The notes: generated by a model from the sequence alone, not told the origin. 32,000 nt of DNA from Methanoregula sp. (GCF_003170075.1 NZ_PMZU01000026.1:42004-74003), one strand, 5' to 3'. Numbered from the stretch's first letter, positions 13,391 to 17,299 are shown. Made by a program: numbers and translations.

Positions 13391-13777
13391 TTATTCTACA
13401 AATAATCTGCCCTGTTCGGTCAGCGAGTAGATGATCCAGTTGCCGTGATACTCGCCTTCAATCAGGCCGCTCTCTTTCAAAATATTCAGGTGATAGGAAA
13501 GTTTTGAGCCGGCAAGGTGCATGAACCGGTTAATAACGCAGACACAGAGCGGCTGGTCGCGGAGCAGAGAGAGGATAGTGAGCCGCAGCGGGTCGGAGAG
13601 TGCATGGTATCTCCTGCTCTGCTCAATGAGATCCTTTTCTTCCGGAATATGCCGGGAGAGAAATTCAACTCCTCCCAGATGTTCAATGGCCTCAAGGCCC
13701 ACATCGGGATTCATGGCCGCTCTCTTTTTGGGTCTGGGTTTTCGCGGGCCGCAACAGGAACTTTTTGATAATTTCAT
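13391..13777 (-). CDS. arsR: ArsR/SmtB-family metalloregulator (hgcAB/ars-associated)
   Basis: ATG at 13777 gives MKLSKSSCCGP... Winged-HTH core YHALSDPLRLTILSLLRDQPLCVCVINRF..LSYHLNILKESGLI with the CVC metal(loid)-sensing motif. Divergent from hgcA. The track start at 13837 would run through the shared promoter. Confidence 0.85.
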   Translation of the reverse strand: MKLSKSSCCGPRKPRPKKRAAMNPDVGLEAIEHLGGVEFLSRHIPEEKDLIEQSRRYHALSDPLRLTILSLLRDQPLCVCVINRFMHLAGSKLSYHLNILKESGLIEGEYHGNWIIYSLTEQGRLFVE

Positions 13778-13847
13778 TTCAAAATAATATGAAATGCCAA
13801 CGTATATACGCTTCACTTGCAGACAATATTTCAACAAAATTTGAAAT
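13775..13847. promoter_or_regulatory. Divergent arsR/hgcA control region: palindromic TATA flanked by two inverted repeats (candidate ArsR operators)
   Basis: CATTTCA-N8-TGAAATG at 13775-13796, overlapping the arsR ATG. Perfect palindrome CGTATATACG at 13801-13810, which contains the TATA element. ATTTCAA-N6-TTGAAAT at 13828-13847, between the TATA and the hgcA ATG at 13861. TGAAATGCC also occurs as a direct repeat at 13790-13798 and 13842-13850. Confidence 0.5.
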
Positions 13848-13860
13848 GCCGTGAAGTACT

Positions 13861-14985
13861 ATGACGAACATACCATCCGGCCCTAATCACAAAGGAACTC
13901 CGTTGAGGAGTGAACCATCCATAGAAAACACCATGCAATCCTGCTGCGGGAGTGTTCAAAAAGAGCCCGCATCCGCATGTTTCTGCACCGGAAAAACCGG
14001 CCCGGCACCGGGAATCCGTACCACCACATCCATAATCACATCTGCCGACAGGCGGGATCATTTCCTTGCCCGGTGGGGCGTCAACCGGATGGGCCGTATC
14101 GTTACGCCGGGTCTGTACCGGCTCGGCAGCCCAACCACAGATTCACCCGTCTTTGCGTCCGCTAACTACACACTCAGCTTTGACGCACTCCGTTCAGCGC
14201 TTGCCGGCACTGATGCATGGATCCTGGTGCTGGATACCAAGGGGATCAATGTCTGGTGCGCTGCCGGGAAAGGGACGTTTGGCACCGGTGAACTGATCCG
14301 GCGTATTGCGGTGACCGGGCTTTCCGAAATTGTCTCGCACCGCAGGATCATCCTCCCCCAGCTTTCGGCATCCGGGGTTTCGGCACATGACGTCGCCCAT
14401 TGGTCCGGTTTCTCGGTCGAGTACGGCCCGGTCCGGGCCCGGGATCTCCCGGCATACCTTCCCACCCGCACGGCAACGCAGGAGATGCGGACCGTCCGGT
14501 TCCCGCTTGCTGACCGGCTCCTCCTCTGCCCCATGGAACTTGTGCACGCACTCCTGCCCATGATTGCAGTAGCAGTCGTGTTGTACTTCCTTGCCGGCCC
14601 GGTTGCGGGGCTCGCAGCAATTGCCGCCGTGCTCGCAGGGACCGTGCTCTTCCCGGCGCTGCTCCCGTATCTCCCGACGCATGATTTCTCCATGAAGGGC
14701 TTCATCCTCGGGGCCATTGTCACGATCCCGTTTGCAGCAGCGTTTGCCCGGGCACCCGGCCTCTCCGGCATCGCACAGGTCATCGCGGTGCTCGTCCCGT
14801 TCCTCATCATCCCGGCCGTTGTCGCATACCTCGCCCTCAACTTCACCGGCTCGACCACGTTCACCTCCCGGACGGGCGTGAAAAAAGAGATCTTCCGGTA
14901 CGTGCCGACAATGGTGCTCATGGCAGGCGCCGGGACAATCCTCGGGATCGCGCTTGGCGTCCTCCGGCTCATGGGGGTGACCTGA
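13861..14985 (+). CDS. hgcA: Mercury methylation corrinoid protein HgcA
   Basis: Hallmark cap-helix motif NVWCAAGK at aa 130-137 (nt 14248-14271, Cys codon 14257-14259). N-terminal CFeSP-like corrinoid-binding domain followed by a C-terminal domain with about 5 TM helices. Directly followed by hgcB. An alternative start at Met25 (13933) is possible. Confidence 0.9.
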   Translation: MTNIPSGPNHKGTPLRSEPSIENTMQSCCGSVQKEPASACFCTGKTGPAPGIRTTTSIITSADRRDHFLARWGVNRMGRIVTPGLYRLGSPTTDSPVFASANYTLSFDALRSALAGTDAWILVLDTKGINVWCAAGKGTFGTGELIRRIAVTGLSEIVSHRRIILPQLSASGVSAHDVAHWSGFSVEYGPVRARDLPAYLPTRTATQEMRTVRFPLADRLLLCPMELVHALLPMIAVAVVLYFLAGPVAGLAAIAAVLAGTVLFPALLPYLPTHDFSMKGFILGAIVTIPFAAAFARAPGLSGIAQVIAVLVPFLIIPAVVAYLALNFTGSTTFTSRTGVKKEIFRYVPTMVLMAGAGTILGIALGVLRLMGVT

Positions 14986-15323
14986 TGTTTAACGCTTACG
15001 CAGAAAACACGCTCAAGTATTTCCCGGAGAAATGCATCAACTGCCGGCGCTGCACGCAGGTCTGCCCTCACGGAGTTTTTACTGAAGGGAAAAACCGGGC
15101 AGCACTCGTTAATCCCCGGGCCTGCATGGAGTGCGGGGCCTGTGCGAAAAACTGCCCGGTGCAGGCAATTGAGGTACAGAGCGGCGTCGGATGCGCATGG
15201 GCCATGATCAGCGCGGCACTCAGGGGAAAGGACATGGACAGTGGCGAATGCAGCTGCGGGGGGCCGGAGAGTTCCTGTTGCGGCCAGACAAAAGAAGACC
15301 CATGTTCTTACGGGGCAGAATAG
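14985..15323 (+). CDS. hgcB: Mercury methylation 2[4Fe-4S] ferredoxin HgcB
   Basis: Two CX2CX2CX3C motifs (CINCRRCTQVC, CMECGACAKNC) that include the HgcB-diagnostic CMECGA. Cys-rich tail with vicinal CC (aa 98-99, nt 15276-15281). The start overlaps the hgcA stop (TGATG). Confidence 0.9.
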   Translation: MFNAYAENTLKYFPEKCINCRRCTQVCPHGVFTEGKNRAALVNPRACMECGACAKNCPVQAIEVQSGVGCAWAMISAALRGKDMDSGECSCGGPESSCCGQTKEDPCSYGAE

Positions 15324-15334
15324 AGGAATCAGCA

Positions 15335-15778
15335 ATGAAGGCAACCACAAAATCTGATGATGCAGTGGCAAGTTACATGAGCAGGTTCACCTGCTCTGCA
15401 GCAGTGTTTTCTGCCTTTTCCGAAGATCTTGGCCTAAATCCCGATACGGCAAAAAAGATCGCATGCGGATTCGGTGCAGGGATATCGAAGACCGGCAATA
15501 TGTGCGGTGCGGTGTCCGGGGCAATCATGGTTATCGGGTTGAAATACGGAAAGACCGAAGCGGATGACGAAGCCGCAACCGAGAAGACACGGGCCCTCGT
15601 CCGGCAGTTCATTCACGAGTTTATAGCAAAGAACGGCTCGGTCAACTGTACGGATCTGCTCGGACTTAACATTAGCAACCCCGAAGAATTTGCACAGGCA
15701 CGCGATAATAAACTGTTTGTCACGAAATGCCCGGAACTTGTGCGGGACGCCACGGAAATCCTTGAAAAAATCCTTTGA
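15335..15778 (+). CDS. C_GCAxxG_C_C family putative redox-active protein
   Basis: ATG at 15335 follows a GAGGA RBS, 11 nt after hgcB. FTCSAAVFSAF..ACGFGAGISKTGNMCGAVSGA..NCTDL..KCPELV reproduces the C / GCAxxG / C / C signature of the family. Confidence 0.8.
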   Translation: MKATTKSDDAVASYMSRFTCSAAVFSAFSEDLGLNPDTAKKIACGFGAGISKTGNMCGAVSGAIMVIGLKYGKTEADDEAATEKTRALVRQFIHEFIAKNGSVNCTDLLGLNISNPEEFAQARDNKLFVTKCPELVRDATEILEKIL

Positions 15779-15800
15779 ATGTACAAATAGGTGAACGCTA

Positions 15801-16874
15801 ATGGATACGCAAGTAAAACGACTTTCATTCCTTGACCGGTACCTTACGCTCTGGATCTTCCTTGCGATGGCGGTCGGGATAGCAATCGGGTACTTTTCAC
15901 CTACAGTACCGACGCTGATCACCGGCCTTTCAGTAGGGACCACGTCAATCCCGATTGCCATCGGGCTTATCCTCATGATGTACCCGCCGTTGGCAAAAGT
16001 ACGTTATGAGGAACTCAGCAACGTGTTCCGGGATAAGAAGGCACTCGGGCTTTCTCTGTTCCTGACCTGGCTCGTGGGACCTTTCCTGATGTTTGCCCTT
16101 GCCGTCCTCTTCCTCCACGACCAGCCGCTGTACATGTATGGCCTGATCCTCGTCGGGATTGCCCCCTGCATCGCAATGGTCATTGTCTGGATAGACCTTG
16201 CCAAAGGCGATCGCGAGTTCAGTGCGACGATGGTGGGGTTGAATTCCATCTTCCAGGTCCTCTTCTATTCGGTCTATGCATACCTCCTCATCACCGTGCT
16301 CCCGAAAATCATCGGCATTGCCGAAGGGACAGTGGTGGATGTATCCATGGTCGAAATTGCCGTCACTGTCTTTACGTATCTTGGCATCCCGTTTATCGCG
16401 GGAGTTGTTACCCGGTTCACCCTCATCAAGATAAAATCAAAGGAATGGTACGAACAAAAATTCATCAGGAAGATTTCACCGGTCACTCTCATTGCGCTGC
16501 TCTTTACCATTATCGTGATGTTCTCGCTCAAGGGCGGATACATCGTTACCGTCCCGCTCGATGTCGTCAGAGTCGCGATCCCGCTGGTCTGTTACTTCCT
16601 GATTATGTTCTCTCTCGGTTTTTACCTGGCATTTAAACTGGGAATCAATTATCCGCGGACTGCAAGCCTCGCATTCACCGCAGCGTCAAACAATTTCGAG
16701 CTTGCCATCGCGGTCGCCATCGGTGTCTTCGGCATCGGATCTGCTGTTGCGTTCGCCACCGTTATCGGACCTCTCGTGGAAGTGCCGGTGATGATCGGCC
16801 TCGTGAACGTGACGCTCTATCTCAAAGAGAAATGGTATAAAGGCGGCAGTCCATCATCAGAATGTAGAACATGA
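15801..16874 (+). CDS. acr3: Arsenite efflux permease, ACR3 family
   Basis: [58 protein letters not shown].. These are the classic ACR3 motifs, including the conserved Cys in the PC(I/T)AMV segment. Confidence 0.9.
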
Positions 16875-17299
16875 ACAGACCCCGCATCCTTTTTGTCTGC
16901 ACCGCAAACGCGGCCCGCTCCCAGATGGCGGAGGGCTACCTCCGGGCAAAGTACGGCGACCGGTACGAGGTCTTCTCGGCCGGCTTCCGCCCCGCCGGCC
17001 GGGTGAGCAGCCGGGCAATTATCGCGATGAAAGAGATCGGGATCGACATCTCCGGCCACCAACCAAAGTCGCTCGATACCTTCAACGGTGTTACACTCGA
17101 TCTCGCGGTCACGCTCTGCGATAACGCCCACGCGGTCTGCCCGGTCGTGCCGTCAGCGAAAAAAACGATCCATCACAGGTTTCCCGATCCCCACCTCACC
17201 CCGGGCACCGGTGAGGAGATCCTTGGCGGGTACCGGAGTGTCCGGGACGCCATCTGTGCGTGGATCGATGCCACGTTTGCCCACGGGTTGCCGGGATAA
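16871..17299 (+). CDS. arsC: Arsenate reductase, LMW-PTPase / thioredoxin-coupled type
   Basis: [17 protein letters not shown] (CX5R(S/T) P-loop) plus the downstream Cys pair in [10 protein letters not shown] (spacing i, i+7, as Cys82/Cys89 of the pI258 type). ATGA overlap with acr3. Confidence 0.9.

Follow-up and report, generated by a model that had tools for sequence, protein, structure and literature searches.

A probable ArsR-governed operon joining hgcAB to acr3 and arsC in an uncultured Methanoregula

The mercury-methylation gene pair hgcAB of an uncultured Methanoregula belongs to what is probably one polycistronic operon governed by an ArsR-type regulator, with the gene order arsR <-> hgcA-hgcB-C_GCAxxG_C_C-acr3-arsC. 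The locus lies in a 32,000-nucleotide (nt) stretch of DNA from a Methanoregula metagenome-assembled genome (MAG; GCF_003170075.1, NZ_PMZU01000026.1:42004–74003), which was analyzed at its full length and is referred to here as the window. A cobalamin-biosynthesis (cbi) operon borders the locus on one side and a malic-enzyme gene on the other, and the HgcA protein was matched on metagenome contigs only. Gene identities and junctions, the conservation of a promoter cassette between arsR and hgcA, the linkage of the gene modules, and a mosaic structure can all be read directly from the window and from related loci that were compared with it, which are designated by L-numbers (L005, L085, L100, and so on).

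Genes and junctions of the hgcAB locus

Six open reading frames (ORFs) make up the locus (Table 1): arsR on one strand and, divergent from it, the co-directional hgcA, hgcB, C_GCAxxG_C_C gene, acr3, and arsC. A preliminary description of this DNA, made from the sequence, had proposed five co-directional genes separated by −1, 11, 22, and −4 nt beside a divergent ArsR gene, and the ORF coordinates and junctions were all reproduced. The hgcA and hgcB ORFs share a 1-nt overlap (TGATG) at 14985, the 11-nt gap between hgcB and the C_GCAxxG_C_C gene holds a GAGGA ribosome-binding-like motif, the 22-nt gap ahead of acr3 contains AGGTGA, and acr3 and arsC overlap in an ATGA.

The assignment of positions 13861–15323 to HgcA and HgcB, made there from the motifs NVWCAAGK and CMECGA and a terminal CC, was borne out by hidden Markov models, both proteins scoring above their NCBIfam cut-offs, and each of these motifs was found. 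HgcA contains INVWCAAGKGTFGT, with the cap-helix segment INVWCAAGK that carries the Co-ligating Cys, and the cap-helix stretch GINVWCAAGKGTFGT (residues 128–142) is invariant in 26 relatives. Kyte–Doolittle hydrophobic windows, a crude test, mark a C-terminal membrane domain over residues 219–373. The protein is 79 to 92% identical to Methanoregula HgcA, the named relatives (79 to 83%) being Methanoregula MAGs. HgcB has the cluster motifs CINCRRCTQVC and CMECGACAKNC and a C-terminal vicinal Cys pair in SSCCG. Outside the NCBIfam model, HgcA residues 1–52 (13861–14020) form a Cys-rich N-terminal tail (SCCG...C-x-C) that is kept in most of the 26 Methanoregula HgcA proteins and echoes the SCCG at the N terminus of ArsR.

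In Acr3, the segments GIAPC and GPLVEVPV are what we take to be the conserved Cys and Glu motifs. ArsC was aligned to Bacillus subtilis ArsC (1JL3; E value 6e-24), and it retains residues equivalent to Cys10 of the P-loop (CX5R(S/T)), to both members of the disulfide-cascade pair (Cys82/Cys89), and to Asp105 (FPDP).

Table 1. Features of the locus and of the adjoining permease gene, in window coordinates
Feature	Coordinates	Strand	Basis or remark
arsR (ArsR/SmtB metalloregulator), 128 aa	13391..13777	-	NF033788, 70.4 bits vs cut-off 55; Pfam HTH_5
Operator-like palindrome 1, ATTTCAAAATAATATGAAAT	13776..13795		Between TATA box and arsR start; overlaps arsR start codon
Palindromic TATA-box-like element, GTATATAC	13802..13809		TATATA at least 90% conserved across 23 cassettes
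Operator-like palindrome 2, ATTTCAACAAAATTTGAAAT	13828..13847		14 nt 5′ of hgcA ATG; over expected hgcA transcription start
hgcA	13861..14985	+	NF040863, 434.8 bits vs cut-off 275; model positions 2–322 of 325
hgcB	14985..15323	+	NF040864, 118.6 bits vs cut-off 99; 2x[4Fe-4S] ferredoxin
C_GCAxxG_C_C family protein	15335..15778	+	TIGR01909, 103.9 bits vs cut-off 47.4; Pfam PF09719, 117.6 vs 27
acr3, arsenite efflux permease	15801..16874	+	TIGR00832, 432.8 bits vs cut-off 282.8
arsC, low-molecular-weight (LMW)-phosphatase-type (thioredoxin-coupled type) arsenate reductase	16871..17299	+	Pfam LMWPc
GntP-family permease	12075..13364	+	Pfam GntP_permease; convergent with arsR

ArsR and a promoter cassette found also in hgc-less ars operons

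The arsR gene almost certainly starts at ATG 13777, which is the conserved start; the TTG at 13837 chosen in the preliminary description is very unlikely, and gene callers took 13714. Judged by conservation, the extended N terminus of ArsR is real, since the two residues of its vicinal CC (in SCCG) are kept in 22 and 21 of 22 orthologs, and those of the CVC on helix α3 (in LCVCV) likewise in 22 and 21. The α3 CVC is presumably a site of the R773 type and the N-terminal CC one of the Corynebacterium glutamicum type.

The ATG codons of arsR and hgcA are separated by an 83-nt spacer that holds two operator-like palindromes, 52 nt apart, with a TATA box between them. Two perfect 20-bp matches to ATTTCA-N8-TGAAAT were found by pattern search in the 32-kb window, compared with 0.04 expected by chance; the 6-nt-arm palindromes had been spotted by eye, and a repeat search with a 9-nt seed misses them. 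In 23 distinct loci, both palindromes and the TATA element have been kept amid diverging flanks, and of 26 cassettes examined, 23 have an offset of exactly 52 nt from the first palindrome to the second. The TATA element is separated from the arsR ATG by ∼26 to 30 nt, and palindrome 2 follows it after ∼25 nt, at the distance where an archaeal transcript would be expected to begin; the element appears to be placed to serve both divergent transcripts. The layout as a whole is that expected for a repressor that would shut both divergent promoters.

Because the host is an archaeon, promoter and terminator signals were sought with simple TATA and T-run scans. The earlier statement that there is no TATA is correct for the interior of the operon; the arsR-hgcA spacer holds the sole TATATA of positions 13701–17400 (at 13803–13808). 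Inside the operon, a palindrome search found no second cassette, and there is no further TATATA. The compact gaps, the translational coupling, the single conserved cassette, and the lack of another TATATA together support a single ArsR-controlled unit, and from this spacing and promoter conservation we infer a single transcript and arsenic co-regulation.

The same cassette, together with an orthologous ArsR that is 61 to 70% identical and has the same four Cys residues, was found in operons without hgcAB (L085, L086, L087, L091, and L094). In L085, the layout is arsR<OP>DGC-cupin-DGC-ArsP-C_GCAxxG_C_C-Acr3-ArsC, where OP is the cassette; in L086, it is ...ArsE-type thioredoxin-DGC-DGC-DUF166-ArsP-C_GCAxxG_C_C-Acr3-MtrA paralog, and the layouts of L087, L091, and L094 are akin to these. 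NCBIfam models confirmed Acr3, the ArsE-type thioredoxin, and the MtrA-subfamily protein of the hgc-less operons. The proposal that the leading structural genes of an ars operon are here replaced by hgcAB is thus upheld, since the same ArsR and cassette are followed in the hgc-less operons by DGC-(cupin)-DGC-ArsP at that place and then by a C_GCAxxG_C_C-acr3(-arsC) tail. The window shares with the conventional Methanoregula ars operon (L085, L086, and L087) the orthologous ArsR, the operator/TATA architecture, and this tail, but hgcA and hgcB are promoter-proximal instead of DGC and ArsP.

ArsR dimers bound at the two palindromes would block the near-leaderless arsR and hgcA transcripts alike, the palindromic TATA element (13802–13809) lying between them, and a thiophilic metalloid that binds the four conserved Cys residues (N-terminal CC and α3 CVC) would release ArsR. 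The most likely inducer would be As(III), given that ordinary ars operons are headed by this cassette as well. Derepression would then lead to expression of five tightly coupled genes together, with As(V) reduced by ArsC and As(III) exported by Acr3; the corrinoid methyl carrier HgcA and its ferredoxin HgcB would be made at the same time and would methylate Hg(II) if present.

It is also conceivable, if improbable, that the signal for ArsR is not arsenic but Hg(II), Cd(II), some other soft metal, or even a metabolite (S-adenosylhomocysteine, for example), in which case HgcAB would be a genuine Hg(II) detoxifier within a thiophilic-metal response. The S4-type Cys pattern of ArsR (N-terminal CC plus CVC) is like the α3N site of CadC, its best sequence matches in the PDB include CadC-type and other non-arsenic ArsR/SmtB proteins, and ArsR2 of Pseudodesulfovibrio mercurii ND132, which has a four-Cys site, responds to S-adenosylhomocysteine as well (10.1101/2022.10.17.512643). 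However, orthologs with the same Cys set and operators control operons encoding ArsP, ArsE-type thioredoxin, Acr3, and ArsC, and mer genes are absent from the window. The ArsR of C. glutamicum likewise uses an N-terminal CC for As(III), which also counts against a non-arsenic inducer.

Neighborhoods of hgcAB and recombination at the locus

To place the locus among its relatives, 80 species-representative hgcAB loci, all from Methanomicrobia, were surveyed and scored by tblastn and motif scan. An ArsR cassette is found upstream in 18 of the 80, directly before hgcA in 10 of them, and ArsR identity among these 18 species spans 50 to 79%; a small Cys-rich MazE/AbrB-like gene (Pfam MazE_antitoxin) is upstream in 60, and both are present in 2. 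The arsC gene is downstream of hgcB in 32 loci (within 2 kb in 27), a same-strand acr3 of at least 60% identity is present in 10, and a C_GCAxxG_C_C gene follows hgcB in 6. At least one ars-type link was scored in 42 of the 80 loci, and the complete window-type layout in 2 (L011 and L014). The preliminary description had called for a check of synteny; the full arrangement recurs in the nearest relative, L100, as well as in the species of L011 and L014, and this recurrence argues that it is not a chance juxtaposition. Elsewhere, hgcAB sits mid-operon, as in L065 (arsR<OP>DGC-cupin-DGC-ArsP-MtrA-[MazE-like]-hgcA-hgcB-CGCA-Acr3, CGCA being the C_GCAxxG_C_C gene) and L010 (...MtrA-hgcAB-Acr3-methyltransferase-ArsC), and L053, L038, and L040 have related layouts.

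Several observations weigh against a single arsenic-responsive unit under ArsR. Control by ArsR is a minority state, since 60 of the 80 hgcAB loci use the MazE/AbrB-like gene in its place. The inducer is uncertain because the four-Cys sensor resembles the Cd/Pb-sensing α3N site of CadC as much as it does As(III) sites. The preliminary description had seen no internal T-run, which is true of the gaps and not of the genes, where runs of five T residues within hgcB (15076), acr3 (16619), and arsC (16890) could partially terminate transcription in an archaeon. A weak internal promoter is possible at 15705, where an AT-rich ATAATAAA lies 96 nt 5′ of acr3; it is not conserved. Finally, ArsC, which had been called a textbook ars product together with Acr3, keeps the catalytic Cys triad but falls short of the TIGR02691 equivalog cut-off (112.7 versus 174.3 bits). 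The cut-off may simply exclude the archaeal branch of ArsC, given that a score of 121.7 bits, likewise too low, was obtained for ArsC from a conventional Methanoregula ars operon.

Other features of the surveyed loci concern arsC and the MazE/AbrB-like gene. Of the genes queried, the one most often found downstream of hgcAB is arsC of the LMW-phosphatase type, and the hgcB stop codon overlaps or abuts the arsC start (0 to 3 nt; ATGA, TAATG, or TAAATG) in ∼19 species, including those of L016–L020, L023, L029, L030, L059, L075, and L079, even where arsR or acr3 is absent. In L031 and L036, the MazE/AbrB-like gene is preceded by three to four tandem TTTTTCTGA repeats, which may be an operator of its own. 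In L100 (9478–12466), whose HgcA is 92% identical to that of the window, the C_GCAxxG_C_C gene is in pieces of 83 and 108 aa with a DUF166 gene between them, and arsC is represented by ORFs of 51 and 99 aa; either the ars tail is decaying or a long-read assembly has introduced frameshift errors.

The C_GCAxxG_C_C protein has a conserved four-Cys signature (Cys20, Cys57, Cys105, and Cys132) plus Cys44, and its AlphaFold2 model is all-helical with a predicted local distance difference test (pLDDT) score of 91.6; no sequence or fold relative was found among solved structures in the PDB. When metagenomes were scanned with the protein, 11 loci with close orthologs (at least 74% identity) were recovered. 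In all 11, the gene is immediately upstream of an Acr3/SBF gene; its 5′ neighbor is ArsP in 8, hgcB in 2, and a contig edge in 1, and 9 of the 11 are operons without hgcAB. Four relatives at 61 to 70% identity (L096–L099) have no acr3 adjoining the C_GCAxxG_C_C homolog, and the linkage to acr3 is, in terms of gene order, established for close orthologs only. In the genome of L023, which has a plain hgcAB-arsC locus, the C_GCAxxG_C_C gene is found in the ars island L085, at a distance of 170 kb. This separate copy and the invariable adjacency to acr3 indicate that the gene travels with acr3 and not with hgcAB and is, on gene order, an acr3-linked ars-operon gene.

The preliminary description had instead put the C_GCAxxG_C_C protein forward as an accessory of mercury methylation that would carry Hg(II) on thiols or act as a redox partner. 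Conserved Cys residues are abundant in the protein, and its gene stands directly after hgcB in the window (11-nt gap) and in L011, L014, L038, L040, L065, L074, L089, and L090. Such a role is nevertheless highly improbable and largely refuted by synteny: most of the close-ortholog loci are without hgcAB, the gene always precedes acr3, 74 of the 80 hgcAB loci have no C_GCAxxG_C_C gene after hgcB, and the hgcAB-arsC genome of L023 keeps its copy in a separate ars island. As a member of the acr3 module, it could be a thiol protein of the cytoplasm that delivers As(III) to Acr3 or holds its thiols in the reduced state, and so could partner Acr3 in As(III) handling or thiol redox chemistry. In a literature search of incomplete coverage, we found no paper tying C_GCAxxG_C_C to arsenic.

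Different segments of the locus have different nearest relatives. The cbiA, hgcAB, arsC, and malic-enzyme genes have 77 to 88% DNA identity to L006 and L008, in which the layout is arsR<OP>hgcAB-arsC without GntP, CGCA, and acr3. The remaining segments are closest to the hgc-less island L087, with DNA identities of 86 to 89% (GntP, 89%; 3′ half of arsR, 89%; CGCA-acr3 at 15352–16840, 86%), whereas the CGCA-acr3 segment has only 73 to 75% identity to its counterparts in the hgc operons L011 and L014. The switch point is at ∼16800–16840, within the end of acr3, and from 16797 onward the window is 87% identical to L006. By this comparison, acr3 is chimeric, with an ars-island-like body and a last ∼40 to 75 nt of the resident hgc-locus type. 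In L006 (11432–11505), L008, and L005 (14205–14250), the start of arsC is fused to a 45- to 75-nt remnant of the 3′ end of acr3, and from the retained relic it is clear that L006 and L008 lost acr3 by deletion. GC content at third codon positions is lower in the C_GCAxxG_C_C gene (0.55) and acr3 (0.65) than in hgcA (0.72) and arsC (0.79). The differing relatives of each segment, the switch point in acr3, and the relic in L006, L008, and L005 identify the operon, as a reconstruction from DNA identities, as the product of repeated recombination between an hgcAB-arsC locus and a paralogous ars island at one chromosomal site.

In an alternative reading, hgcAB would occupy a recombination-prone ars site by happenstance, the ars genes being transcribed or selected independently of mercury methylation; adjacency would then say nothing about the biology of HgcAB. 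The site is indeed highly plastic: GntP, CGCA, acr3, MtrA, and methyltransferase genes come and go among close relatives, acr3 has been deleted from L006 and L008 with a relic left behind, and the CGCA-acr3 of the window is nearer to that of an hgc-less island than to those of other hgc operons. We nonetheless consider a neighborhood without shared function unlikely. The gaps of the operon leave no space for intergenic promoters, hgcB and arsC overlap or abut in ∼19 species, the ArsR cassette has been retained before hgcAB in 18 species despite ArsR identities of 50 to 79%, and hgcAB is mid-positioned in the long ars operons L065 and L010.

Corrinoid or methyl-transfer genes are repeatedly present in Methanoregula ars operons (L086:7592–8290, L085:8288–9370, and L087:7584–8162; also L005, L010, L061, and L065). 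They include an MtrA-subfamily paralog (182.5 bits versus 161), a B12-binding-domain protein, and a small S-adenosylmethionine methyltransferase whose best matches are ArsM models, all under cut-off. In L010, L061, and L065, the MtrA paralog is just 5′ of hgcA, with only a small MazE/AbrB-like gene between them.

Directly ahead of the locus, whose HgcA depends on a corrinoid, positions 4848–11705 are taken up by a full set of anaerobic cbi genes (for CbiC, CbiD, CbiG, CbiA, and several TP_methylase proteins); L005–L009 and L100 likewise have CbiA upstream of hgcAB, and this may be plain inherited synteny. An ORF-like stretch of 77 codons 3′ of cbiA (11761–11992) has ∼77% DNA identity in L005, L006, and L008 and no Pfam match. 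The GntP permease is probably ars-island cargo rather than a member of the operon: its gene has 89% DNA identity to the copy in L087 and is absent from the close relatives L006 and L008. Homologs are found near an arsR cassette, ars islands, or hgcAB in L007, L057, L085, L087, and L100. The protein matches the NCBIfam model for the arsinothricin exporter ArsQ weakly, with 32.8 bits, far under the cut-off, and may be an unrecognized transporter of organoarsenicals or another ars-linked substrate. On the other side, a 450-nt spacer (17300–17749) between arsC and the malic-enzyme gene contains no convincing ORF, and its first run of at least five T residues occurs only at 17616; it is kept in L006 and absent from L008 and L005. 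Neither this spacer nor any other part of the 32-kb window has a match in Rfam.

Relation to known systems and meaning

Flanking of hgcAB by arsR, acr3, arsC, and arsM has been published repeatedly (PMC7438021, PMC11984097, and PMC10349881), and the novelty initially claimed for hgcAB within an ars operon was overstated, since flanking by arsR, acr3, and arsC is already described in these reports and in 10.1101/2022.10.17.512643. In P. mercurii ND132, hgcAB is under the control of the ArsR-like regulator ArsR2, for which a response to both As(III) and As(V) was found (Gionfriddo et al. 2023, 10.1101/2022.10.17.512643). The window and ND132 share an ArsR/SmtB-family regulator adjoining hgcAB and the hypothesis of a link between HgcAB and arsenic metabolism. 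In ND132, however, arsR is co-directional and co-transcribed with hgcAB, the regulator has an atypical four-Cys site that is not on helix α3, and there are no other ars genes nearby, whereas in the window arsR is divergent and encodes the canonical α3 CVC together with an N-terminal CC, an archaeal TATA box is accompanied by two operator-like palindromes, and hgcAB is in one gene string with acr3 and arsC.

Bacterial hgcAB loci from MAGs have the same gene set of arsR, hgcA, hgcB, acr3, and arsC (McDaniel et al. 2020, PMC7438021; Peterson et al. 2025, PMC11984097), and the same link between mercury methylation and arsenic detoxification was drawn in those mostly bacterial, descriptive reports; in lake metatranscriptomes, the presence of arsR was tied to lower hgcA transcription (PMC11984097). 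The window differs from them in being archaeal, in having an operator/promoter cassette that it has in common with hgc-less ars operons of the genus, and in including the C_GCAxxG_C_C gene. Among cultured archaeal methylators, an arsR-like gene upstream of hgcAB was reported only in Methanosphaerula, and a MazE/PrlF-like upstream gene was described (PMC10349881). Loci of the latter type belong to the same clade, Methanomicrobia, and have the same hgcAB(-arsC) core, but in the window the MazE/PrlF-like gene is absent and the ArsR cassette, found here in 18 of 80 species, stands instead. Our literature search, the coverage of which was incomplete, returned no paper on arsR-hgcAB in Methanoregula. 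What is new is the resolution of an archaeal case to an operator/TATA cassette common to hgc-less ars operons, the use of that cassette by about a quarter of Methanomicrobia species (18 of 80), the tight coupling of hgcB to arsC, the reassignment of C_GCAxxG_C_C to the acr3 module, and the mosaic history of the locus.

A more far-reaching interpretation, which we offer tentatively and regard as unlikely, is that in the Methanoregulaceae HgcAB truly belongs to the ArsR regulon and can be exchanged with other ars modules that lie next to the promoter. The native role for which it is selected would then be to transform arsenic or another metalloid, for example by a corrinoid-dependent methylation coupled to ArsC and Acr3, and mercury methylation would be a side reaction. 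HgcAB would thereby join corrinoid and methyl-transfer proteins recruited to ars operons (MtrA paralogs, the B12-binding protein, and the ArsM-like methyltransferase), and, as a separate matter, the C_GCAxxG_C_C protein would be an unrecognized ars gene product partnering Acr3.

Why hgcAB exists and what controls it are questions of mercury biogeochemistry for which the arsenic link has so far come mainly from one bacterium and from loose gene neighborhoods. The Methanoregula locus is a sharper and testable archaeal case, in which the same ArsR, operators, and TATA box are found ahead of either hgcAB or classical ars genes, and a defined 80-bp promoter fragment is at hand for binding and reporter work. 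It also brings forward C_GCAxxG_C_C as a candidate new acr3-associated ars gene. Should arsenic indeed switch on hgcAB in the methanogens that abound in peat and wetlands, exposure to arsenic would be a predictor of methylmercury production in those settings.

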